From a virus (taxonomy: Duplodnaviria; Caudoviricetes): 64,000 bases of DNA. Of this stretch, positions 5,291 through 22,649 are shown piece by piece. The stretch is taken from IMG/VR virus record IMGVR_UViG_3300048691_000224, one strand, 5' to 3'. Position 1 is the first letter of the stretch. Every line of letters begins with the position of its first letter. The position numbers and the translations under genes were made by a program. A model generated the notes under the pieces. The model was not told the DNA's origin. It did not search any database and saw only the letters and a program-made list of their open reading frames with translations.

Positions 5291-5860
5291 TTAAGCGCCC
5301 TTGGCTCGCTGCGCTCTTACTATTTTCAAGCAATTATAAACGTATGTGGCGGCACCATTTGCGGTTAGTGCTAGTTGATCTCGAAATATCGCCTGCAATT
5401 CTTTATTACTCAACTCAGGGTGAGCTCGCACGATCTCAACTGCTCGGTCTTGTTTAGACGCCGGTCGTGAGTGTGTTCGGGTCAGGTCTTCAATCTTCGC
5501 GCGGTGTTCATCATCTGATGCTCGGATCCATACCAATCGCTTCTTCGTTGGATTCTTAGAAGTAAACACATCAAAATATTTCTCTGCAGCTCGTTGCGCG
5601 CGGTTTAGTGAGCGGGCGATGTTAACTTCGTCATTGATGCTGTACTGTTCAACAATATCATCAACCAAATTTATATAGAACATTCGTGCCTGTTCCATAA
5701 AAGCTGTCTTGTAATAGACCCCTGTAGCTTTGAACACTCGCATCTCAAAGTCTTGTTGTGTTCCTTCAACATCTTGTGCCAGTGAGACAGCAGTCACCTG
5801 ATTGTGGATTGTGATTCCTGAGTCACGAAGAGAAGCAATAGGGTCAAAGTTGAACGTCAT
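5291..5860 (-). CDS. Hypothetical protein with a C-terminal putative HTH-like domain
   Basis: 189-aa ORF; RAVEIV...LALTANGAATYVYN pattern recalled from T4-like phage proteins. Confidence 0.55.
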   Translation of the reverse strand: MTFNFDPIASLRDSGITIHNQVTAVSLAQDVEGTQQDFEMRVFKATGVYYKTAFMEQARMFYINLVDDIVEQYSINDEVNIARSLNRAQRAAEKYFDVFTSKNPTKKRLVWIRASDDEHRAKIEDLTRTHSRPASKQDRAVEIVRAHPELSNKELQAIFRDQLALTANGAATYVYNCLKIVRAQRAKGA

Positions 5861-5976: not shown

Positions 5977-6657
5977 TTATTTTTGTGTTAATTTCACACC
6001 AGCAGCGAATTCAATCAGGGGGATTGCTGTACGATAGTTAGTGAATTTGTCACCTGGTTGATATTCTCGATTTTCCATCAAGTATCCTTCCGATGATCCA
6101 GATTCTGGTACAATAATCTTCCAGAAGTGAGTCGGCACTACTACCCCACGTACACCAAGCTTAGCATCACCTGATTTTGGAAATACGACACCTGTATACA
6201 CTACAGCTGTAGGGTGTGTCACCTGAACATACTTCTCAAGAGATCGCCACTGCCCTCGATTGAAGTTTGGAACCTGTGGGGCTGCGTTTGTGTACAAAAA
6301 CGTATCATTATACGCCACCTTGTCACACGAGTGATTTGATGCTGCTGCAAGGTGACCGATATCATAGGCCGACTGTCGATATGCGCTCTTATTTGCTTGT
6401 TTTGTAGATTGGATAGCAGAATCTGCGCCGAATTGTTTGGTGCGTACGATAGTGCACACCGATACTCGAGGTTCTACGACGAAGTGCGGAATTTTGTGTG
6501 TAGTATTATATGCTATTTCATATCCTGATTTACACAATGTCACACTAGGATCACTAGACTCTAATTTGGACGTGAGTTGGGAGGTTAGGCTGGGGCAGGT
6601 TGCCCCTGCAGATGTGGTCAGAATTAAAATTGAGGCGAGTCCGAGCATTTTAAACAT
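5977..6657 (-). CDS. DNA/RNA non-specific endonuclease (NucA/Endonuclease_NS family) with signal peptide
   Basis: YDIGHL active-site motif, TNAAPQVPNFNRGQWRSLE, VPTHFWKII; hydrophobic N-terminus MFKMLGLASILILTTSAGA. Confidence 0.85.
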   Translation of the reverse strand: MFKMLGLASILILTTSAGATCPSLTSQLTSKLESSDPSVTLCKSGYEIAYNTTHKIPHFVVEPRVSVCTIVRTKQFGADSAIQSTKQANKSAYRQSAYDIGHLAAASNHSCDKVAYNDTFLYTNAAPQVPNFNRGQWRSLEKYVQVTHPTAVVYTGVVFPKSGDAKLGVRGVVVPTHFWKIIVPESGSSEGYLMENREYQPGDKFTNYRTAIPLIEFAAGVKLTQK

Positions 6658-12736: not shown

Positions 12737-13086
12737 GATTGTGTTCCTGTTGCTTTAGCAATTGCAATTTCAGCATTGTGAATAGATTCATCCATTGATG
12801 GACTAATGGCGTAAACCCCAAAACCTTCTTTAGCCTGCAGCACTTGACCATATAAATTTTGTAGAGCATCTAGTAGATCCGGTGCCGCTGTTATAAGTCG
12901 GGCATTGGCAGCAAACATCTCTCCGCAGTGCGTACCCTTACGCACTGCGGGAACCGTGCAAATACCTTGGTAACCCCTACCATCCCAATTTACAGGGTCT
13001 TGTTTGATGTGCCAGTTTCCAAACGACATGTTGCAAGCCCAAGGTCCCGGCGTGTGAGTTCCCTGTACTTTAGTTTGGTTACTCAT
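12733..13086 (-). CDS. HTPGPW/ANARLIAAAP-family phage protein (tandem paralog)
   Basis: HTPGPW...ANARLITAAPDLL; both paralogs contain KATGTQ at the C-terminus. Confidence 0.7.
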   Translation of the reverse strand: MSNQTKVQGTHTPGPWACNMSFGNWHIKQDPVNWDGRGYQGICTVPAVRKGTHCGEMFAANARLITAAPDLLDALQNLYGQVLQAKEGFGVYAISPSMDESIHNAEIAIAKATGTQS

Positions 13087-13594
13087 GTAGTTCCTTTGTC
13101 AATTCGACTTTGATTAATTCTTGTACGATTTTTGGATCCGCCTTGATTATCTTCAGTACACTCCCAACTAGTGCACCAATAGCTTTAGTATTACCGGACC
13201 GATATTGATCAGCCGCCCTCTCATTCTTTGCAATGACGTCACGCACTACAACTAAAATATCGGTAGAGCTTGCTTCGTTCATCAATCGTGAAGAACGCAA
13301 ATAGTCGATGATGTTGTACCCACAGTAATTATACCAACAATCATCGATAATTTTTTTCGCGTGAGAATATGATATAGTTTTGTGGTGTAGGCAACAAGCG
13401 ACATCTGCTGTCAGTTGAGTGAATCCATAATGATAGTACTCAATATCACCAATATCGGTGTCTTCCTTTTCCAATTTGGGTAGAATTTCATTTATCATTA
13501 GCTTAGCTAGATATGGGCCCGCCTCATTGGGATGGGCGCTAGTCAAACACGACATCATGATCGCACCCAATTTATCTTTTTCAGTTTCAGTCAT
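13079..13594 (-). CDS. Protein with C-terminal GatB/YqeY-like domain
   Basis: VIAKNERAADQYRSGNTKAIGALVGSVLK...KADPKIVQELI matches the GatB C-terminal pattern. Confidence 0.7.
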   Translation of the reverse strand: MTETEKDKLGAIMMSCLTSAHPNEAGPYLAKLMINEILPKLEKEDTDIGDIEYYHYGFTQLTADVACCLHHKTISYSHAKKIIDDCWYNYCGYNIIDYLRSSRLMNEASSTDILVVVRDVIAKNERAADQYRSGNTKAIGALVGSVLKIIKADPKIVQELIKVELTKELHE

Positions 13595-15186: not shown

Positions 15187-15263
15187 TGGCAGGGGCGGAA
15201 GGACTCGAACCTTCGCATGCTGGAATCAAAATCCAGTGCCTTAACCAACTTGGCGACGCCCCT
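15187..15263 (-). tRNA. tRNA-Gln(TTG)
   Basis: Cloverleaf; CTGGA-TTTTGAT-TCCAG; G73; encoded CCA. Confidence 0.95.
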
Positions 15264-15426
15264 ATAAAAAGATACTGGTTTCTTTCCCACCAGCAAAGTC
15301 ACGGTTCAGCAGTCAGCGCCGTTGTAACGCTAGAGCAGTGTGCCTTGGTCGATTATACCTAGAATCATCGACCTTCCGAAGTCGTTGGAATTGCTGCAGA
15401 CAACTCTCAACGACTCTATATCCAGA

Positions 15427-15981
15427 CTAAATCAACAGTCCAAGAGCATTTAAACCTTGTGTATGATAGTCGGCTGTAGATTCGAGTGCTTGTGGTGTAG
15501 ACATGTGAGCAAATGCGGCCGTGTGAAAGATTTCATCAGGTAAGATCTTCTGGAATACACTGCGAATGTCAGAGTCAATTTCATTGTCACTACACAGGGC
15601 ACGAATCCGAATCAATCGCATCTTCTCAGCGTGGTGACCCGCGCCAGCGAGCTCTTCAAAGTTTGTGAGATTTTTGAGGATTGGTTCCCAGTAACGATCA
15701 CCATCATAGGTAATCGCAGGTAGATGGATTCCCCTGGTGGTGAGTAGTTCACCGATCCAATCTCGATGAGTAGCTTCATCAACTGCAATGCGTCCTAGAA
15801 TCCTAGCCTTACCTGTTGCATCATCTGCAAATTTAAGTAGGGGAGACTCCATCAAACTATCCAATCGAGAGGCTGCAAGCGCCTCGCCGATGTACTGTCG
15901 GGTCAGCCAGTGGGTCAACTTGGCGCTACTCTGTTTAATTTCGACTAACCATTGTTCAGTTGTTTTCATGGAACTACTCAC
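15427..15981 (-). CDS. Ferritin-like di-iron four-helix protein
   Basis: IGEALA...DEATH...EKMR...DEIFH; paired ExxH ligands. Confidence 0.75.
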   Translation of the reverse strand: MSSSMKTTEQWLVEIKQSSAKLTHWLTRQYIGEALAASRLDSLMESPLLKFADDATGKARILGRIAVDEATHRDWIGELLTTRGIHLPAITYDGDRYWEPILKNLTNFEELAGAGHHAEKMRLIRIRALCSDNEIDSDIRSVFQKILPDEIFHTAAFAHMSTPQALESTADYHTQGLNALGLLI

Positions 15982-15991
15982 TAAAATAATA

Positions 15992-16066
15992 TGGTACCCT
16001 CTACTAGATTCGAACTAGTGACCTGCGCCTTATCGGGGCGTTGCTCTACCACTGCGCTAAGAGGGT
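15992..16066 (-). tRNA. tRNA-Ile(GAT)
   Basis: Loop CC-GAT-AA; CCA encoded. Confidence 0.9.
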
Positions 16067-16075
16067 GTATGTTTG

Positions 16076-16165
16076 TGGTGGGCTTGGGGAGAGTCGAACT
16101 CCCATGTCCTTTTACAGACGGTAGGACCTAAACCTACTGCGTTTCCTGAGTTTCACCACAAGCCC
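16076..16165 (-). tRNA. tRNA-Leu(TAG)
   Basis: GTAGG-TTTAGGT-CCTAC; long variable arm; CCA. Confidence 0.9.
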
Positions 16166-16175
16166 GATTTGTCTA

Positions 16176-16421
16176 TTATCTATCAGAAAGCATTTGTGCA
16201 ATCTTTAAATTTAATACGAAATTTTCTACGGTTAATTTGACGGCCGTCGCCAATAGTACCATGTCTCTGCAATCGCGTTCTGTAGCCAGGTATGTGTCTA
16301 ACACACCACCAGCTATCAATCGATACGCATCACACTCAGAGATCTCCAACATCCCCCAATCAATTGGGTCACCACACTCTATTTGTTGAGCGAGTTCGAC
16401 GAGTTGTTCTGTTAGGTTCAT
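16176..16421 (-). CDS. Hypothetical protein
   Basis: 81-aa ORF inside the tRNA cluster. Confidence 0.6.
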   Translation of the reverse strand: MNLTEQLVELAQQIECGDPIDWGMLEISECDAYRLIAGGVLDTYLATERDCRDMVLLATAVKLTVENFVLNLKIAQMLSDR

Positions 16422-16432
16422 ATTTTATTCTA

Positions 16433-16576
16433 CTACAATATGTATCGAGTGAGAATTAGTTCAATTACCAAGTACCACGCCCAAAATGGGAGGCAGAACG
16501 CAATAAGTGTTGACCAGAAACCTTTGGCAATTACGATACCAGCTACCCAAAATACAAGCACAGCCAATCTAAACAT
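16433..16576 (-). CDS. Small membrane protein, 47 aa (MFRLAVLVFWVAGIVIAKGFWSTLIAFCLPFWAWYLVIELILTRYIL)
   Basis: Translated by hand; AAGGA SD upstream; below the ORF-track cutoff. Confidence 0.6.
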   Translation of the reverse strand: MFRLAVLVFWVAGIVIAKGFWSTLIAFCLPFWAWYLVIELILTRYIL

Positions 16577-16731
16577 TGTCGCAGTTCCTTCATTAATGAT
16601 ATTGATTACTTTTAAGTAGGTGGGGTAGCCTAAGGCATAACTACCATGAGTGAGAGTCCGCTCAGAGGGTCGTGTTTCCGATTACCTCATTATTTGCCTC
16701 ACCTTTTGCGCTGATCAGACGCCTCTATTAC

Positions 16732-16806
16732 TGGTGCTCCCACAAGGACTTGAACCCTGCTTTCCGGATTACAAAACCGGTACATCGCCGTCTATGTTTT
16801 GAGAGC
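16732..16806 (-). tRNA. tRNA-Thr(TGT), class I
   Basis: Loop TT-TGT-AA; CCA. Confidence 0.85.
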
Positions 16807-16818
16807 TTTTTTCTTTAC

Positions 16819-16911
16819 TGGCGGAAACGAAGGGATTCGAACTCACGATGAGGCTCAACACCCCATACTCCCTTAGCAGGGGAGCACCTTCGGCCACTCG
16901 GTCACGTTTCC
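16819..16911 (-). tRNA. tRNA-Ser(GCT) with a mispaired T-stem
   Basis: CTCCC-CTGCTAA-GGGAG; long variable arm; T-stem GTGAG/CCCTT. Confidence 0.8.
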
Positions 16912-16914
16912 TGC

Positions 16915-17121
16915 TTAACTATAAAATTTCACAACAGATGTTACGAATGTAAAACCCCCATCCACTGCAGCTACTGATGCTAGTGCAATGATGTACCGTG
17001 CATCCCAAGATGCTACCATGGTGGCCGGCAACTCGGCATATAATATCGAAGCAAAATATCGATAGATGATTACGATCGCGACGATTGCAATAATTGCGGA
17101 GAGGATCAAAGAACTGTGCAT
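16915..17121 (-). CDS. Small membrane protein
   Basis: Two hydrophobic stretches. Confidence 0.45.
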   Translation of the reverse strand: MHSSLILSAIIAIVAIVIIYRYFASILYAELPATMVASWDARYIIALASVAAVDGGFTFVTSVVKFYS

Positions 17122-17149
17122 ATTGTTGTGTATAGTATTTGAGGTAAGG

Positions 17150-17224
17150 TGGAGCTGGGTATAGGAGTTGAACCTATATTTTCCGACTGGAGGTCGGACG
17201 TATTATCATTTATACGAACCCTGC
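17150..17224 (-). tRNA. tRNA-Gly(TCC)
   Basis: TCCGA-CCTCCAG-TCGGA; U73; CCA. Confidence 0.85.
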
Positions 17225-17242
17225 GTGATTGCGCTAAGAAGT

Positions 17243-17329
17243 TGGTGGAGGTGGTAAGATTCGAACTTACAGCGCCGTTAAGCACCGGGATTACAATCCG
17301 GCGGGGAAACCAGTCTCCCCAACACCTCC
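17243..17329 (-). tRNA. tRNA-Tyr(GTA)
   Basis: Loop TT-GTA-AT; long variable arm; CCA. Confidence 0.9.
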
Positions 17330-17356
17330 ATAGAATAGGTGTGAAATAATGAATAT

Positions 17357-17433
17357 TGGCGGACTGTGTGGGGAACACGATCCCACGACTTCTTGCTCGA
17401 CAGGCAAGCGCTCTACCACTGAGCTAACAATCC
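17357..17433 (-). tRNA. tRNA-Asp(GTC) with an atypical T-loop
   Basis: CTTGC-CTGTCGA-GCAAG; T-loop ATCGTGTTC. Confidence 0.8.
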
Positions 17434-17444
17434 TTATGTGTTTA

Positions 17445-17533
17445 TGGACCAAGCACTCAGATTTGAACTGAGGTGTGTATGTGATACATGCGGATTTGCA
17501 ATCCGCCCCCTTCGACCACTTGGGTATGCTTGG
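17445..17533 (-). tRNA. tRNA-Cys(GCA) with a long variable arm
   Basis: GCGGA-TTGCAAA-TCCGC; U73; extra arm TGTAT-CAC-ATACA. Confidence 0.85.
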
Positions 17534-17541
17534 TTGTGTGA

Positions 17542-17617
17542 TGGCTGACCAGGTTGGTTTCGAACCAACAACCTTCGGTTTTGGAGACCGACGCTCTGCC
17601 AATTGAGCTACTGATCA
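17542..17617 (-). tRNA. tRNA-Trp(CCA)
   Basis: TCGGT-CTCCAAA-ACCGA; CCA. Confidence 0.9.
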
Positions 17618-17626
17618 AAAAATTAC

Positions 17627-17699
17627 TGGTGGCATCACGTGAGGACTCTTACCCCAGAGTGTGTTATGAAGAACACACCAACAAACGATACACCATGCC
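17627..17699 (-). ncRNA. tRNA-like element with a TAAGAGT T-loop and CCA end
   Basis: GGCAT/ATGCC-A-CCA terminus; TGGGG-TAAGAGT-CCTCA arm; GTGTGT/ACACAC arm. Confidence 0.45.
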
Positions 17700-17747
17700 A
17701 CCACGATGCATTCTGTTTACTATTTCGGTTAATTACGCCGACTAATT

Positions 17748-17823
17748 TGGTTGCGGATGGAACGATTTGAACGCCTCCTTGAGGTTATGAGCCTCATGTG
17801 CTGCCGGATTACACTACACCGCG
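17748..17823 (-). tRNA. tRNA-Met(CAT), initiator-like (C1xA72), with a distorted T-arm
   Basis: TGAGG-CTCATAA-CCTCA; CCA; 5' end overlaps the HNH stop codon. Confidence 0.7.
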
Positions 17824-18632
17824 ATAACTTTTAATTTACTTACAGATTTCCGTAGAAAATAACCCGTTGGTGGTTTTGTTAATTCCCACTTTTTTACCCA
17901 ACGATTCACGCCATTGTCTGACATATTATACTTTTTACCAATTTTTGTTAACGGTATCTTCCACAATAATTCTTGCAATTCCTCTTTTGTAAAGTTTGCT
18001 TTTATAGGTTGTGGAATATATGGCGGCTTCTTTGCAACTGGTGAGTTCAATTGGGTTTTATTTCTACCAGCAAATGTGGTGGTTTGACTATGACAATTCG
18101 GACATAAGAAGCACAAATTTTCTAATCTGTGATCAGTTCGTACTCCATTCTTGTGTTCTAGTTGTAAAGTAATGGGAGTACCTTGCCAAATTGGCCCCAT
18201 ATCACAATTTACACATTTGTATTGTAGAACACCTTCCTTAATCAAACGCTTTTTCAAAGACGAACGGTCATAATTCGTGGATTCTATTAATATTTCTGAC
18301 AGTGGGCGGCCGGTAGATCCATTTCTTGTCTGAGGTCTATTTAAGTGAGGATCGAAATGTGAAATATCTATCCCATACTTCGCAACATATTTCCTAAATG
18401 TAACAGCATTTGATGCAGGAGTAAGCCCCAGCTGTCTTAATACTTCACTCATTGAGACCGATTTTTTAATCAACTCCTCCAACATTTGGCGATTATGCCA
18501 ATCTACTTTAAAACTACCTCTTTTTATATTGACCATACTATAGATTTGTCATCTGCTTGTCTATTTATGATGGCCAGCGAGATGGTTAGTTGGTGGGCTC
18601 ATGTGCTGCCGGATTACACTACACCGCGATAA
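17793..18632 (-). repeat. 35-bp exact direct repeat (17793-17827 and 18598-18632) containing the 5' half of tRNA-Met and flanking the HNH gene
   Basis: ctcatgtgctgccggattacactacaccgcgataa present twice. Confidence 0.95.
17814..18536 (-). mobile_element. Free-standing HNH homing endonuclease
   Basis: CVNC...LQLEHKNG...DHRLENLCFLCPNCHSQT; helical DNA-binding repeats at both ends. Confidence 0.85.
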
Positions 18633-18637
18633 ATTTC

Positions 18638-18719
18638 TGGGTCCATTCTGTGAGGACTCTTACCTCAGATTTTCTTCTACCCTTTCGAGGCAGACACTGT
18701 ATACACAGTAAGAATGACC
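18638..18719 (-). ncRNA. Second tRNA-like cloverleaf with a TAAGAGT T-loop and CCA end
   Basis: GTC-ATTCT/AGAAT-G-GAC; ACTGT/ACAGT; TCTGCC/GGTAGA; TGAGG-TAAGAGT-CCTCA. Confidence 0.5.
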
Positions 18720-18934
18720 ATAGACCCGAGATCATTTCTGTTTACTTCTACACCACGTCTGATGTACTAATTTTGGTTTTAGTTGCTACTGAGCTATATG
18801 CCAATAATATTTGTGAGGCTGTGCGAGCTCATCTGCACACTTGGGCTTTTTGTCTTCTCGTTCCAGCTGGCTCTTACGACTGTAGCGTCACCTCAAAAAA
18901 TGGTGCTCCCTCACTCAATCAGGAATACACAAAG

Positions 18935-19020
18935 TGCTGGACACAGGATTCGAACCTGCGATGGATAATAAAATCAATAGCTTACAAAACTATTCCCGTC
19001 AACCGCTTGGGTAATCCAGC
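18935..19020 (-). tRNA. tRNA-Thr(TGT) with a class II-like body (long variable arm); CCA not encoded
   Basis: GCTGGAT/GTCCAGC; ATAGT-TTTGTAA-GCTAT; 17-nt variable region. Confidence 0.75.
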
Positions 19021-19066
19021 ACTTTGTATACTCACTATGAGTGGTGGGTGCACGTTGTATATCTTC

Positions 19067-19137
19067 AGCGGAATGTCAGAATCGAACTGACAACCACAGT
19101 TTGGAAAACTGTCGTTTTACCATTAAACTAATCCCGC
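19067..19137 (-). tRNA. tRNA-Gly(TCC), second copy; CCA not encoded
   Basis: ACAGT-TTTCCAA-ACTGT; U73. Confidence 0.85.
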
Positions 19138-19235
19138 ATAAGTTGGACGTGTGTCGATGAAGCCCCACGATTATCCAATACGTGGTATTTTTCAGACTTG
19201 GCTTTCCAGTATTTACTGACTGGATACATTTGAAA

Positions 19236-19325
19236 TGGTGGAAGTAGTGAGATTCGAACTCACGGACGGATTGCTCCGCCGGCAGTTTTCAAGACTGCTC
19301 CATTAAACCACTTTGGTACACTTCC
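19236..19325 (-). tRNA. tRNA-Ser(TGA)
   Basis: GCAGT-CTTGAAA-ACTGC; long variable arm; CCA. Confidence 0.95.
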
Positions 19326-19346
19326 TTAAAATATTCGCATAATTTT

Positions 19347-19422
19347 TGGCAGGCCGGGCAGGGTTCGAACCTGCGACACTTCGCGTCAAAGGCGAATGCT
19401 CTACCAGCTGAGCTACCGACCG
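19347..19422 (-). tRNA. tRNA-Gln(TTG), second, divergent body
   Basis: TTCGC-CTTTGAC-GCGAA; G73; 1-72 mismatch. Confidence 0.8.
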
Positions 19423-19431
19423 ACAAAAATA

Positions 19432-19505
19432 TGGTGGACCGTCCCAGAATCGAACTGGGACTATAGCTTGCAAAGCTATCGTGTTACCATCTATACCAAC
19501 AGCCC
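19432..19505 (-). tRNA. tRNA-Ala(TGC)
   Basis: ATAGC-TTTGCAA-GCTAT; G3-U70; CCA. Confidence 0.95.
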
Positions 19506-19522
19506 TTTTGTTTACGCGTGTG

Positions 19523-19597
19523 TGGGTCAAATAATGGGGATCGAACCCATGCTAACAGAATCACAATCTGTGTTGCTACCATTACAACATATTTGAC
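19523..19597 (-). tRNA. tRNA-His(GTG)
   Basis: ACAGA-TTGTGAT-TCTGT; G-1:C73. Confidence 0.95.
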
Positions 19598-19600
19598 ATA

Positions 19601-20218
19601 CTATAACTCACCAAGTTGTTGTGCGCTAATCACGATCCTACGTGCTTGGTGTTTATTGTCGATTCCCCAAATTTCCTTGTTTCGAACAAGCGCCCGATAC
19701 TCAACGTCACTGTTAATTTGGGTAATTTCTCGAGGTGGTATCAGACTTACGTAGTATACCCACAAATCAATACGTAACGCATCCAGAATCCTATTGTCCC
19801 AGAATCGTTGCCCATCTTCCGTTTGTTGCGAGTCGGTAATGATTGATCTATACTTCGGCAACAAGCACTCGAAGAATACAAATTCGGTGAGCCCCCTTGT
19901 CTGAAATACCTGGGAGTCTCTCCACACCATTACTTGCTGTGCACAAGTTGTTCTGAGGTATGAGTTCGAGCCAACAGTAAATTGCATTGCGTATGCCGCT
20001 CTCTGAGTATCATGTTCGATCAGTGCGTATGCTCTCGTCGACTCGTAAAGAGTATAGTCGCCTATTTGTTTGATCGCTATTGGTCGCTTTGTTTCGAAAA
20101 ACTTGTGAGTAAATGCGGCATTCTTAATGTCATCCATCAGATGAAAATCTGTCGGAAACACAGACTGAGGCAGTTCAAACAGCTCCTGCGGCTTGACCTG
20201 TGATTGTATAAATTTCAT
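19601..20218 (-). CDS. Hypothetical protein embedded in the tRNA array
   Basis: 205-aa ORF; IITDSQQTEDGQRFW motif (possibly GNAT-like, unverified). Confidence 0.65.
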   Translation of the reverse strand: MKFIQSQVKPQELFELPQSVFPTDFHLMDDIKNAAFTHKFFETKRPIAIKQIGDYTLYESTRAYALIEHDTQRAAYAMQFTVGSNSYLRTTCAQQVMVWRDSQVFQTRGLTEFVFFECLLPKYRSIITDSQQTEDGQRFWDNRILDALRIDLWVYYVSLIPPREITQINSDVEYRALVRNKEIWGIDNKHQARRIVISAQQLGEL

Positions 20219-20233
20219 TGTGTATCCTAATTT

Positions 20234-20307
20234 TACAGCTACAGAGAATTGAACTCTGATTACTGGTGATGAGAACCCCAGCGTCCTAGACGTTAGACGA
20301 TAGCTGC
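20234..20307 (-). tRNA. tRNA-Glu(CTC), atypical anticodon stem; CCA not encoded
   Basis: Glu-type D-arm TCGTCTA...AGGAC; CTGGGG-TTCTCAT-CACCAG. Confidence 0.7.
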
Positions 20308-20345
20308 ATTTATTTTTCGGCTCTTGCTAACCGATCGATTCATCA

Positions 20346-20485
20346 ATATGATGGTCAGGATTTTAACCTGACGTTTCCACGGGCACGAGTATCCTTATTT
20401 AGACGACTACAGTTAACCCGTAGATGAGTTTCAAAACTCACGTCTCTCGCTGTTGAGGTATCCTAATCTCTAGATGACATCATAT
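20346..20485 (-). ncRNA. 140-nt double-cloverleaf tRNA-like RNA candidate
   Basis: ATATGATG/CATCATAT outer stem; two D-arm+T-arm modules; central CTACGG/CTGTAG hairpin. Confidence 0.6.
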
Positions 20486-20497
20486 AATTAAAAATTT

Positions 20498-20571
20498 TGG
20501 TACAGATACGGGGAGTCGAACCCCGCTTAGTAGAGAGAAAATCTACTGTCCTACCGATAGACGATATCTGC
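20498..20571 (-). tRNA. tRNA-Glu(TTC) with a pyrimidine at position 37
   Basis: GTAGA-TTTTCTC-TCTAC; CCA. Confidence 0.9.
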
Positions 20572-20582
20572 ATTTATTTTTG

Positions 20583-20620
20583 TGGCTCCTTAGACAGGCA
20601 TCTCGAACCTGTATATTACG
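20583..20620 (-). pseudogene. tRNA 3'-half remnant
   Basis: ACAGG-TTCGAGATG-CCTGT followed by ...GAGCCA; no 5' half visible. Confidence 0.35.
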
Positions 20621-20623
20621 GCT

Positions 20624-20697
20624 TGGTCAGGGTAGAAGGAATCGAACCTTCACCACGACGTCCCAAACGTCGCATGATACCATTTCACCACACCCTG
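20624..20697 (-). tRNA. tRNA-Pro(TGG)
   Basis: CGACG-TTTGGGA-CGTCG; CCA. Confidence 0.95.
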
Positions 20698-20702
20698 ATA
20701 AC

Positions 20703-20775
20703 TAATTAGATCTAAGTGTGCTCCTGTTACAAACTGCCGGTGAGGCCTGGCGTAGTGCACACTTAGATCTAATTA
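20703..20775. repeat. Perfect 19-bp inverted repeat with a 35-nt loop
   Basis: taattagatctaagtgtgc / gcacacttagatctaatta. Confidence 0.9.
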
Positions 20776-20960
20776 CTCAGGGTTGAGAGACACAAATTGT
20801 ATTAACGGGAGGAATGAGGCATCAGCGACCACTCATATTACCAACTCACAAATTAATACAAAGCATTTCACGCCCTGAGTAATAAGATATTATTTCACAC
20901 CTATTTGTTAATGATCATTTTTGCTACAGAATTCGATGATTCTGAGTGCACATATAATTG

Positions 20961-20992
20961 AAAAGAGCCTTGTAAATTACTTGGCTCTTTTT
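20961..20992. terminator. Bidirectional intrinsic terminator-like hairpin
   Basis: AAAAGAGCC...GGCTCTTTTT. Confidence 0.6.
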
Positions 20993-21182
20993 GTGTTTGT
21001 TATAATTCTTATTATTCTGAGGGATCAAATTCTTTTTCGATCTCCATAATTTCGATTATCACATACACAGGGAGCTTTACAATCCGCCGGCGTCCAATAA
21101 TTGGCTTCCGTCTGGCAATGTTCACTTCCTGTATTATACGAATTCAAAATCATTTCTTGATCTCTTTATTTGCTATCTGTCT

Positions 21183-21211
21183 ATTATATATGCTTTATTT
21201 ATATAAGTCAA
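21183..21211 (-). promoter_or_regulatory. Sigma70-type promoter (TTGACT-N17-TATAAT) driving the main tRNA array
   Basis: Near-consensus, upstream of the ORF-free structured region. Confidence 0.8.
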
Positions 21212-21233
21212 CAATTATTTTACCAAAATTTTA

Positions 21234-21352
21234 AAAATATTTTCAAATCAAAGTTTAGAAAGGACTTGAACCTCCCATCCAATAGGATAGCAATTGAACG
21301 CCGCCCCGACTGCTCTACCAATGAGCTATAAAATTTGATTTGAAAATATTTT
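21234..21352 (-). ncRNA. tRNA-mimic element E3 (D-arm and T-arm inside a 19-bp perfect terminal stem)
   Basis: TA-GCTC-ATTGGTA-GAGC; GGAGG-TTCAAGT-CCTTT; AAAATATTTTCAAATCAAA and its complement. Confidence 0.65.
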
Positions 21353-21376
21353 AGATTTTCTAACTACTTAGACCCC

Positions 21377-21404
21377 ATTATCAACATTTATTTGAACAGG
21401 TCAA
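21377..21404 (-). promoter_or_regulatory. Promoter (TTGACC-N16-GATAAT) for element E3
   Basis: Family-like -35 box, directly upstream of E3. Confidence 0.65.
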
Positions 21405-21423
21405 CAATTATTTTTCAACTTGA

Positions 21424-21600
21424 AAAATAAATTTAGAAAGAGCGGGTAAAGGGAGATCGAACCCTAACAACTTAGTGGATTTCTCGATAGGTAATATTAC
21501 CTCCTATCGCGGCACAGATCCTCAATACTAATTAGGAGTCTACTAATCTATGCCCGCACGAAGTTGGCTGCCTTGCAACCACTCTTTCTGAATTTATTTT
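21424..21600 (-). ncRNA. tRNA-mimic element E2 (extended anticodon arm, 19-bp terminal stem)
   Basis: GCGGGCA/TACCCGC; GATT/AATT D-stem; AGGG-TTCGATCT-CCCT; CGATAGG/CCTATCG. Confidence 0.6.
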
Positions 21601-21616
21601 ATACAAGAATTGCACT

Positions 21617-21766
21617 AAAAACTGAACACAGTACTCGGTTGGATTTGCACCAACTACCACCTGATGGTTACAGGTCGTACTATTCTCATGGGCTTTATAG
21701 CTAATATTTCCCACTACCTTTGTACTAGCTCTACTATTTAAGCTATCGTTACACTGTTCAGATTTT
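21617..21766 (-). ncRNA. tRNA-mimic element E1 (extended anticodon arm, variable arm, terminal stem)
   Basis: GCTT-AAATAGTA-GAGC; ACCTG/CAGGT; GTTGG-TGCAAAT-CCAAC; CTGAACA/TGTTCAG. Confidence 0.6.
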
Positions 21767-21789
21767 AATGTAATCCTCACTTGATATCC

Positions 21790-21817
21790 ATTATCAATGA
21801 AGTTTCAAACAAGTCAA
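21790..21817 (-). promoter_or_regulatory. Promoter (TTGACT-N16-GATAAT) for elements E1+E2
   Basis: Directly upstream of E1. Confidence 0.65.
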
Positions 21818-21824
21818 CAATTAT

Positions 21825-22025
21825 TTAATTTACTTTCTGGCCGGTGCTGGAATTGATGCACAAAAATCGGCTGGTATTAGAGTCTCCAATTTTACTAGCC
21901 ACAAGCAATGTGGTGCTTGCATTTTTGCAAGCAAGTTCTGATGCATAATTACCTAACACAGCTGGTGCAGCTAATGGATTGTGGAATGATGCTGCAATGT
22001 AAATTAGTGTGTATACGGTCGCCAT
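21825..22025 (-). CDS. Small exported/membrane protein (GxYAS..AC family), paralog of 27254-27466
   Basis: Hydrophobic N-terminus; LGNYASELACK; AAGGA SD. Confidence 0.6.
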   Translation of the reverse strand: MATVYTLIYIAASFHNPLAAPAVLGNYASELACKNASTTLLVASKIGDSNTSRFLCINSSTGQKVN

Positions 22026-22061
22026 TTTGAATTTCCTTTATTAAACTTGCTCTTAGGGTCT

Positions 22062-22089
22062 ATTATACCCCAAATCGGAGTAAGGTCAA
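22062..22089 (-). promoter_or_regulatory. Early promoter (TTGACC-N16-TATAAT)
   Basis: Family member with the -10 palindrome. Confidence 0.8.
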
Positions 22090-22128
22090 CAAGTAATTCA
22101 AGTTTTTATGGTTTTAATCAAAAAAAGT

Positions 22129-22473
22129 TCAGATATCGTGGTAATCCCAGTTTTCAATACATGAACCATATGATTCGATAAAATTATTGTAGGCAGCTTC
22201 CGTCGAGGCTTCTACCAACGATTCTAAATCTCCAACCACTTTACCGTACACTAGGTGTGATGCTTCAAAGTGGTTCACCCACTTGTAATAGTCTTCATGA
22301 ACTTCCGCGACCACTGTCCATCCAGACACTTCATCATATCCAATACAAACTGGATTAAGCGTAATTGCTTCTGTTCTTCTTTGCACACACGAGTTAACTT
22401 TAAATGGTAACTCGTCAACGGTAGGGACAATTGGTCTGTTCAAAAACTCGGTTAATGCTTGATTATTCATCAT
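22129..22473 (-). CDS. Hypothetical protein
   Basis: Likely start MMNNQAL. Confidence 0.6.
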   Translation of the reverse strand: MMNNQALTEFLNRPIVPTVDELPFKVNSCVQRRTEAITLNPVCIGYDEVSGWTVVAEVHEDYYKWVNHFEASHLVYGKVVGDLESLVEASTEAAYNNFIESYGSCIENWDYHDI

Positions 22474-22636
22474 TGATTCCTTCGGAGTACAATCTATCTG
22501 CCTCATCGCACGGGTCTTCGTCGAGTGGATTAGTATCAATCATGATGTGCCCGATGTGAATTTTACCATCTTCAGTTGCACAGCACGGGTCACCAATGAA
22601 GTGTTGGCCAGCGAGTAGCGTTACTTTATTTTTCAT
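22463..22636 (-). CDS. Small hypothetical protein, 57 aa (MKNKVTLLAGQHFIGDPCC...)
   Basis: Translated by hand; fills the gap and overlaps the next start. Confidence 0.45.
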   Translation of the reverse strand: MKNKVTLLAGQHFIGDPCCATEDGKIHIGHIMIDTNPLDEDPCDEADRLYSEGINDE

Positions 22637-22649
22637 GTCAAACTTTCAG

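Follow-up and report, generated by a model that had tools for sequence, protein, structure and literature searches.

A tRNA-Glu-derived RNA element with acceptor-like strands complementary between two units in the tRNA array of an uncultured T4-like phage

The viral DNA analyzed here (IMG/VR record IMGVR_UViG_3300048691_000224; the whole stretch of 64,000 nucleotides is called the window) belongs to an uncultured T4-like phage from freshwater metagenomes and encodes RIIA, a family B DNA polymerase, NrdA and a baseplate hub/lysozyme protein. Its minus strand carries a long tRNA array, in which ARAGORN identifies 21 tRNA genes and Rfam gives 21 hits; the wider tRNA gene region extends over 15187-26720. 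In the part of the array considered here, the order on the minus strand is a 21-bp hairpin, tRNA-Pro, a 52-nt tRNA-Asn relic, tRNA-Glu(UUC) with its CCA, a 12-nt spacer, a 140-nt element, a 37-nt spacer, tRNA-Glu(CUC) and a 205-aa open reading frame (ORF; Table 1). The 140-nt element, on the minus strand of 20346-20485, is the subject of this report, and its RNA positions are counted from 5′ to 3′ on that strand (position 1 = 20485). A preliminary description gave its sequence and segmentation, which are exact, placed it between the two tRNA-Glu genes, as ARAGORN also does, and read it as a double cloverleaf of two tRNA-Glu-like modules with swapped acceptor strands. That observation proves largely correct; the interpretation built on it is partly supported, whereas the specific fold and a dedicated function are not.

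The element consists of two tRNA-derived units, A and B, each of which retains the Glu-type D-arm that had been ascribed to it. The pattern TC[AG]TCTA-N4-9-GGA[CT], which was defined after the sequences had been seen, has four matches in the 64 kb, one in each tRNA-Glu gene and one in each unit, against a chance expectation of 0.83 in a window of this size as estimated from shuffles; elsewhere, across all fetched loci, it is confined to tRNA-Glu genes. This motif identifies the element as a derivative of tRNA-Glu-type sequence. To this extent the modules are Glu-like, but neither half is recognized as a tRNA by Rfam or ARAGORN. ARAGORN reports no tRNA gene in the element at thresholds down to 70%, introns being allowed too, and an intron-containing tRNA is ruled out by the empty result of ARAGORN -i. 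Slices of 801 and 191 nt gave no Rfam match at E<=10 to tRNA (covariance model RF00005, threshold 29 bits), tmRNA, YrlA or any other relevant family; membership of the tRNA, tmRNA or YrlA family was rejected on this ground, and the element, judged from its sequence, is outside every known RNA family.

In agreement with the preliminary description, the sequence holds no anticodon and no CCA. A 7-nt anticodon loop on a 5-bp stem is absent from both units, and neither has its own acceptor stem with a free 3′ end, the terminal stem being flush. At the elbow, where the preliminary description suggested that A-U in unit A, and perhaps U-A in unit B, takes the place of the usual G19-C56 pair, T-loop B has an A at position 56 instead of C, T-loop A has 8 nt, D-loop A has a single G in a GA context and D-loop B has no G. 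Ahead of the T-arm, both units contain the non-tRNA string GA(G/A)ACGU(G/C)AG. The similarity of the units to phage tRNAs in local alignments is not above that of controls (best z 1.8-3.0 for A and 4.1-4.6 for B, a z of 4.6 being reached by 7.5% of control sequences). Direct duplication of A and B, judged by overall similarity, was rejected as well: the pair has a z of 3.8, but 27% of unrelated tRNA pairs reach that value.

The acceptor-like strands are complementary between the units, as had been claimed. The 5′ strand of A and the 3′ strand of B form a terminal stem with 8 of 8 Watson-Crick pairs; the 3′ strand of A and the 5′ strand of B match at 6 of 6 positions, one G-U included; and in a third helix, missed by the preliminary description, GCGAG (36-40) can pair with CUCGU (97-101) at 5 of 5 positions. 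Within the units, acceptor pairing reaches only 3/6 in A and 3/6 in B, which is chance level, so that neither unit is able to close its own acceptor stem. All three cross-unit helices are perfect and stand in tRNA register, the terminal repeat starting exactly 8 nt before the UC and D-arm A and ending flush after T-arm B. Because perfect 8-bp inverted repeats at 100-160 nt spacing are frequent (80 in the window), the terminal stem is notable only through this exact register.

Folded alone, the element has a minimum free energy (MFE) of -41.8 kcal/mol (z = -3.55), and none of 200 shuffles was as good; the full 189-nt spacer has a z of -3.29. The element is structured beyond chance. Its MFE fold keeps the terminal stem (pair probability 0.65-0.999), both T-like hairpins and D-arm B, and pairs 63-70 with 102-109. 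The T-arm claimed for each half is firmly predicted in B, whereas hairpin A, which resembles the T-arm of tRNA-Ser(UGA), has a loop of 8 nt and not the canonical 7; in it, four of the five pairs have probabilities of 0.85-0.995 and the closing G-U one of 0.46. The supposed stunted anticodon arms are only 3-bp helices with one mismatch each, of which that of unit A, with a 6-nt loop, has a pair probability of ~0.53 and that of unit B, with a 4-nt loop, one of ~0.

The eight-way junction of the proposed double cloverleaf was not borne out: at -32.5 kcal/mol it is the least stable of three candidate folds, and its middle hairpin (63-79) has a pair probability of ~0 in the ensemble, being outcompeted by an irregular 18-bp hairpin over 63-109. 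A nested fold, in which the middle hairpin is forced, has -36.8 kcal/mol. Its outer junction comprises the terminal stem, D-arm A, a central arm and T-arm B, and at its far end the central arm opens, through helix 36-40/97-101, into a second four-way junction, which contains a 4-nt linker at the variable position, T-arm A, the closed acceptor-like hairpin, UC, D-arm B and a single A equivalent to position 26. All helices are intact in this fold, which has 42 base pairs and one U-U mismatch (30/107) in an internal loop. The nested arrangement is a simpler description: an outer tRNA-like frame carries a circularly permuted cloverleaf at the end of its anticodon arm. For the 21 real tRNAs of this phage, the median gap between cloverleaf and MFE is 2.9 kcal/mol, and in 6 of the 21 the cloverleaf is at least 5 kcal/mol above the MFE. 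Because genuine tRNAs show similar energy deficits, thermodynamics cannot choose among the three folds, and the rejection of tRNA-like folds on thermodynamic grounds was dropped. In a fold of the whole Pro-Glu-element-Glu precursor, the pair probability of the terminal stem falls to 0.10-0.15.

These results bear on the view that the element is a chance structure in an ordinary spacer, the cloverleaf being a product of pattern-matching on A/U-rich sequence that happens to hold a common 8-bp inverted repeat. The abundance of such repeats in the window is in keeping with this view, as are the control-level similarity of the units to tRNAs and the failure of every tRNA model to match. Chance would, however, also have to account for the placement of both extra Glu D-arm motifs within the same 140 nt, for in-register helices with probabilities of 0.375^8, 0.375^6 and 0.375^5 by our own arithmetic with G-U allowed, and for the z of the fold; we regard it as very improbable.

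Table 1. Coordinates of the element, its parts and the neighbouring features, listed in minus-strand order.
Feature	Coordinates	Strand	RNA positions	Evidence and remarks
RNA ligase gene	23255-23896	minus		PF09414, E = 4e-23; inside the wider tRNA gene region
Predicted sigma-70-type promoter sites	21790-21817, 21377-21404, 21183-21211	minus		near-consensus, early-type-like
tRNA-like element E3	21251-21335			sub-threshold tRNA match, 20.2 bits
Perfect 21-bp inverted repeat	20701-20777			35-nt loop; directly upstream of tRNA-Pro
tRNA-Pro(UGG), CCA encoded	20624-20697	minus		ARAGORN; Rfam, 61 bits
tRNA-Asn 3′-part relic and leader ...GAGCCACAAAAATAAAT	20572-20623	minus		86.6% identity to the tRNA-Asn 3′ end of L003
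tRNA-Glu(UUC), CCA encoded	20498-20571	minus		ARAGORN; Rfam, 52.1 bits
A/U-rich 12-nt spacer, CCA end to element	20486-20497	minus		two substitutions in the X21 variant
Terminal (outer acceptor-like) stem, 5′ strand, AUAUGAUG	20478-20485	minus	1-8	pairs 8/8 with 133-140
D-arm A (AUCU-AGAGAUUA-GGAU)	20460-20475	minus	11-26	Glu type, preceded by UC; pair probability ~0.55
Truncated anticodon region, unit A	20442-20459	minus	27-44	AGAC at the variable-loop position
T-arm-like hairpin A	20424-20441	minus	45-62	5-bp stem with 8-nt loop UUUUGAAA, or 7-bp stem with tetraloop
Closed acceptor-like hairpin CUACGG-GUUAA-CUGUAG (3′ strand of A, 5′ strand of B)	20407-20423	minus	63-79	6/6 pairs
D-arm B (GUCU-AAAUAA-GGAU)	20391-20404	minus	82-95	Glu type, preceded by UC, loop without GG; pair probability ~0.8
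T-arm-like hairpin B	20354-20372	minus	114-132	6-bp stem, 7-nt loop UUAAAAU; pair probability >0.98
Terminal stem, 3′ strand, CAUCAUAU	20346-20353	minus	133-140	followed by no discriminator base and no CCA
3′ spacer, 37 nt	20309-20345	minus		competing UGAUG, small hairpin, second tRNA-Asn-end relic and leader (AGAGCCGAAAAATAAAT); alignment to L030 and L003, fold
tRNA-Glu(CUC), lengthened anticodon arm, CCA not encoded	20233-20308	minus		ARAGORN; Rfam, 43.2 bits
205-aa ORF	19601-20218	minus		phrog_1349 (function unknown); anchor for fetching related loci
HNH endonuclease gene	17814-18536			phrog_10822, E = 3e-48; embedded in the tRNA array
Stand-alone GatB/YqeY-domain protein gene	13079-13594	minus		PF02637, E = 2.5e-17; just outside the tRNA gene region

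With the 205-aa ORF as anchor, 28 related loci were fetched, and genomes whose flanks are 93-97% identical fall into three haplotypes at this site. Form 1 (the window, L008 and L021) has the element, with all 140 nt identical. In Form 2 (L003, L009-14 and L030), a tRNA-Ser-like gene, a reverse-strand ORF and a 95-nt tRNA-Asn take its place. Form 3 (L015-20) shows a 393-nt deletion and is without the element, tRNA-Glu(UUC) and tRNA-Pro(UGG), the last being the first gene of the missing block; the deletion joint (20311->20705) is also found in the DNA run X5. The haplotypes co-exist in the same freshwater samples in genomes that are ~95% identical, and the runs X18 and X5 each hold more than one form. 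tRNA-Glu(CUC) is the sole gene among these local tRNA genes that is retained in all three. Its anticodon arm has 11 nt, versus 9 in the model, in the Rfam alignment, and by our reading would form a 6-bp stem with one G-A mismatch and a normal UUCUCAU loop; being the only tRNA-Glu left in Form-3 genomes, it is probably functional. The inverted repeat upstream of tRNA-Pro is also kept in all three haplotypes, with loops that differ among them, and has only spurious Rfam matches (miRNA precursors).

The ORF of Form 2 is phrog_23051, a family in which one relative carries PF18780 (homing-endonuclease-associated repeat), and the Form-2 insert is a putative homing-endonuclease cassette. A descent of the element from the Form-2 tRNA-Ser-like gene or tRNA-Asn after loss of the ORF was rejected, the similarity being no more than that between any two tRNAs. 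The Form-2 relatives do contain the intact tRNA-Asn, which has 95 nt with a long insert (L003 1746-1840), and two relics of a tRNA-Asn 3′ end (20572-20623 and ~20318-20335), each followed by the leader (C)AAAAATAAAT, stand directly upstream of the two tRNA-Glu genes of the window. The first of these, just upstream of tRNA-Glu(UUC) and ~90 nt from the element, has the clear appearance of a recombination scar. Array content differs even among contigs with an identical anchor protein, P0006 (L033, L034 and L035; Logan): L034 has a tandem tRNA-Glu(UUC) pair, 7 nt apart, at 6150-6309, and extra genes for tRNA-Gln(CUG), tRNA-Tyr and tRNA-Gly. As judged from these comparisons, turnover of the tRNA array is clearly very fast in this phage group, and the HNH endonuclease gene inside the array is consistent with endonuclease-driven rearrangement of the cluster.

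Copies of the element outside Form 1 were not found in the collections searched. The relatives whose anchor proteins are 72%, 60% and 47% identical have no copy, while the neighbouring non-coding stretch 20703-21328 is 71% conserved in the 72%-identity relative. The 60%-identity relative, L002, has at 5535-5615 a tRNA-shaped sequence with a canonical D-arm (TAGCTCAATTAGTAGAGCG) and a non-canonical T region (GCCGGGGCAGAGCCGGT), which ARAGORN does not call. A single-sequence covariance model of the element (R1) returned no homologue, either across 40 loci or in G001, a relative of 110 kb. Exact and degenerate pattern scans of IMG/VR and a protein-based scan there gave no further copy; 17-18-mers match eight IMG/VR contigs, in which R1 matches only the 17-nt hairpin, and the match in L025 falls in a degenerate tRNA-like piece that is unrelated to the element and lies close to a different tRNA array. 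A blastn search of INPHARED in distant mode (50,697 phage records) gave hits of the flanking tRNAs and chance matches of 24-35 nt only, none of them in a T4-type phage, and an 18-mer scan of GTDB genomes gave two chance hits only, with R1 scores of 8.6 and 6.9 bits. The JGI metagenome scans, whose flank-based pattern does match the window itself, yielded no copy, which is a weak negative, as that collection is evidently without the samples holding L008 and L021. Independent lineages with compensatory substitutions are therefore absent from this material, which comprises the identical copies in L008 and L021 and one variant contig. L021 differs from the window at 36 positions, all upstream of 20581, and at none of the 363 nt from tRNA-Glu(UUC) to the ORF; because the identity covers this entire block, it reflects a recent shared block and not measured constraint, and was dropped as a sign of constraint on the element.

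The element is present in RNA libraries: it is found in the metatranscriptome runs X15, X18 and X21, and the shares of its sampled words in the three are, in descending order, 100%, 73% and 46%. In the RNA library X18, the depth is 39.6 on the 3′ part of the element and 7.1 on the adjacent ORF, versus 9.9 and 19.7 at the same places in the DNA run X5; these are assembler depths from different samples, and the contigs gave no usable RNA ends. The variant contig, from X21, holds the only variant of the element found, in which RNA positions 33, 35 and 36 are altered, as are two positions of the 12-nt spacer. Through the three clustered changes within the element, 29-38 comes to match CUCAUCUACG at 58-67, 29 nt downstream, so that the clustered 3-nt change looks like templated conversion. 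G36A turns a G-U pair of helix 36-40/97-101 into A-U, and the other two changes lie in an internal loop; the nested fold becomes slightly less stable (-35.5 kcal/mol against -36.8), and the 5′ domain favours another fold.

No sigma-70-type promoter match belongs to the element. The three strong promoter sites predicted farther upstream (Table 1) have a common upstream repeat, AATAATTGTTGAC(T/C), and the non-coding stretch of ~1 kb that they would drive, which is 71% conserved in L004, holds further tRNA-like elements, E3 among them. The RNA ligase and the GatB/YqeY-domain protein encoded near the array suggest, from their domains, tRNA repair or tRNA-binding functions.

A strain-specific accessory role would account for several of these features. 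The element would then be a tRNA-mimic RNA with closed ends and a nested double cloverleaf, exchanged between strains like other accessory cassettes of phages; the lack of a free acceptor end would make it stable, and it would bind a factor that recognizes the tRNA-Glu body, such as a host tRNA-targeting defence nuclease, a modification or processing enzyme, or the GatB/YqeY-domain protein of the phage. A strong fold signal (z = -3.55), cross-unit helices that are perfect and in register while within-unit pairing is at chance, and stems that are intact although the loops have diverged would all be expected of such an RNA, and the X21 variant replaces G-U by A-U at position 36 and confines its other two changes to an internal loop. 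Depth in the RNA library is comparable to that of the flanking pre-tRNA region, other tRNA-like RNAs with closed ends occur in the region (E3, at 20.2 bits below the threshold; 71% conservation in L004), the RNA ligase and the GatB/YqeY-domain protein are encoded nearby, and the tRNA region of T4 itself gives rise to small RNAs, RNA C and RNA D (PMC3014915). Against this stand the want of a homologue in any collection searched, with siblings and relatives lacking the element, the missing sigma-70-type promoter and Rfam family matches, the pair probability of only ~0.1-0.15 for the terminal stem in the whole-precursor fold, and the slight destabilization of the nested fold in X21 (from -36.8 to -35.5 kcal/mol), in which another 5′-domain fold is favoured. 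On this evidence, the accessory-mimic explanation is unlikely, although it is to be taken seriously. Doubt is greater for a functional strain-specific mimic of undescribed architecture, in which an 8-bp closed acceptor stem, a Glu D-arm and a T-arm would carry a permuted second cloverleaf at the tip of the anticodon arm, and which would serve as a nuclease-resistant decoy or scaffold for a factor recognizing the tRNA-Glu body, as one of a closed-end set (E1-E3) beside the array. A designed double cloverleaf with a dedicated function is possible, but the comparative evidence weighs against it.

Among known systems, the closest analogues are the small RNAs of the T4 tRNA region in terms of context and YrlA in terms of the inner module's topology. 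T4 RNA C (species 1 RNA, rnaC, 139 nt) is, like the element, a non-tRNA RNA of ~140 nt that lies within the tRNA cluster of a T4-like phage, on the strand of the tRNA genes; it is also tRNA-like, with a canonical T-arm and an acceptor-like stem at its end, and strongly structured (z = -4.6, compared with -3.55 for the element). It differs in having one tRNA-like 3′ domain and a long hairpin and not two Glu-type units. Homology to T4 rnaC and rnaD was rejected, as the sequences are unalignable and MAFFT with rnaC gives scattered identities only. No biological role is known for either RNA C or RNA D (PMC3014915).

YrlA (RF02553), a Y RNA-like tRNA mimic of bacteria and phages, has a variable region, a T stem-loop, a closed acceptor-like stem-loop and a D stem-loop, in this order, within a closing helix (Chen et al., 2014, PMC4201824). 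In the constrained fold, the inner module of the element has the same order, and its closing helix 36-40/97-101 is in the position of the anticodon stem. Unlike YrlA, however, the element contains no CGAA and hence no GNCGAAN0-1G Ro-binding motif, has no Rfam match at E<=10, and lacks the conserved tRNA nucleotides in its D- and T-loops; its closing helix runs into a second, outer tRNA-like junction and not into a Ro-binding stem. A gene for Ro60/TROVE was found neither among the large ORFs of the window that were scanned nor in G001. The authors of the YrlA study noted that dimeric tRNAs may score as false positives (PMC4201824), a caveat to which the tandem tRNA junction proposed below as the origin of the element corresponds.

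A role in cis is also conceivable, the element being a structured spacer that stops the flanking pre-tRNA-Glu sequences, which have acceptor and D-arm sequences in common, from mispairing, or that lets RNase P, RNase III or RNase E enter and separate the precursor. Its place is exactly between two tRNA-Glu genes similar enough to mispair (local alignment z = 11), and it is transcribed together with the tRNA genes on either side. Stacked on T-arm B, the terminal stem would make a 14-bp minihelix, of the kind that RNase P is able to recognize. RNase P is also known to cleave the YrlA RNA of M. smegmatis (PMC4201824). Comparison of the haplotypes does not favour such a role: Form 3 has tRNA-Glu(CUC) without the element, Form 2 parts the same two tRNA-Glu genes by an unrelated sequence, and in L034 the tRNA-Glu genes are just 7 nt apart. 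We consider a role of this kind improbable.

Two further systems bear on the origin of the element. In T4, turnover of the tRNA region between related phages is driven by the SegB endonuclease, whose cuts fall at tRNA T-arm motifs (Brok-Volchanskaya et al., 2008, PMC2330249). The present locus resembles that system in that close relatives differ by whole cassettes of the tRNA cluster, a free-standing endonuclease-like ORF is present in the alternative allele, and tRNA fragments have been left behind. It differs in that the ORF, a putative endonuclease gene, is phrog_23051 (with a relative carrying an HNH-associated repeat) and not a GIY-YIG Seg protein, and in that the element and the Form-2 cassette have no common sequence, which points to replacement and not to simple insertion. 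The second comparison is with dimeric, tandem and permuted tRNAs, in which, as here, two tRNA-sized units stand head to tail in one transcript. The junction of a tandem pair of identical tRNAs offers the same order of T-arm, acceptor and D-arm as the element. In real dimeric precursors, in contrast, both tRNAs have closed acceptor stems of their own and are set free by RNase P, whereas the element keeps only the cross pairing (within-unit, 3/6) and has no anticodon loop, CCA or discriminator base.

The reading that we favour, though with modest confidence, is that the element is a by-product of recombination in a fast-changing tRNA array, which is transcribed and excised but dispensable. It would have originated by duplication or out-of-register recombination in a tRNA array colonized by endonuclease genes. 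Its layout can be read as tRNA X 1-31, tRNA Y ~39-76, a 5-nt spacer, tRNA Y 1-31 and tRNA X ~39-76, as though the junction of two tandem Glu-type copies had been copied into the anticodon region of a third, with loss of both anticodon loops; out-of-register repair of a double-strand break could make such a nested product. An origin of this kind would yield all three in-register swapped helices without selection. Simple neutral decay of a plain tandem duplicate is excluded by the combination of perfect cross pairings with within-unit pairing at chance. The element would be transcribed together with tRNA-Pro, tRNA-Glu(UUC) and tRNA-Glu(CUC), without a promoter of its own, and would be released as a spacer of ~190 nt by 3′ trimming of tRNA-Glu(UUC) and a cut by RNase P at the 5′ end of tRNA-Glu(CUC). 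Like RNAs C and D of T4, the by-product may persist through its compact fold, although the phage would not need it. A recombination mosaic fits the locus in view of the tRNA relics, the replacement of cassettes, the endonuclease-like ORF in the other allele and the tandem tRNA-Glu genes in relatives.

Several observations weigh on the other side. As modelled, the intact nested helices, together with loops far from the tRNA consensus, would also fit selection on structure. The mosaic needs a specific nested recombination event, and the anticodon loops are gone from both units. The string GA(G/A)ACGU(G/C)AG common to the two units hints at the duplication of a unit that was already without an anticodon. 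The depths in X18 suggest that the element RNA is present at levels like those of the flanking pre-tRNA region.

If the element is a mosaic only, it would be a clean case from nature of a permuted, nested tRNA-like fold produced in one step by tandem tRNA genes and endonuclease-driven repair. Because its topology would be the same as that of YrlA-type mimics, this would be a plausible route for the origin of such mimics, and it would also be a caution that tandem arrays yield swapped-strand tRNA dimers at no cost. If the element is functional, it would represent a new architecture among the few tRNA mimics of phages and would bear on the role of the small non-tRNA RNAs of T4-type tRNA clusters, a question that dates from the 1970s. 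Either way, the locus documents very fast turnover of cassettes in the tRNA arrays of uncultured freshwater T4-like phages.

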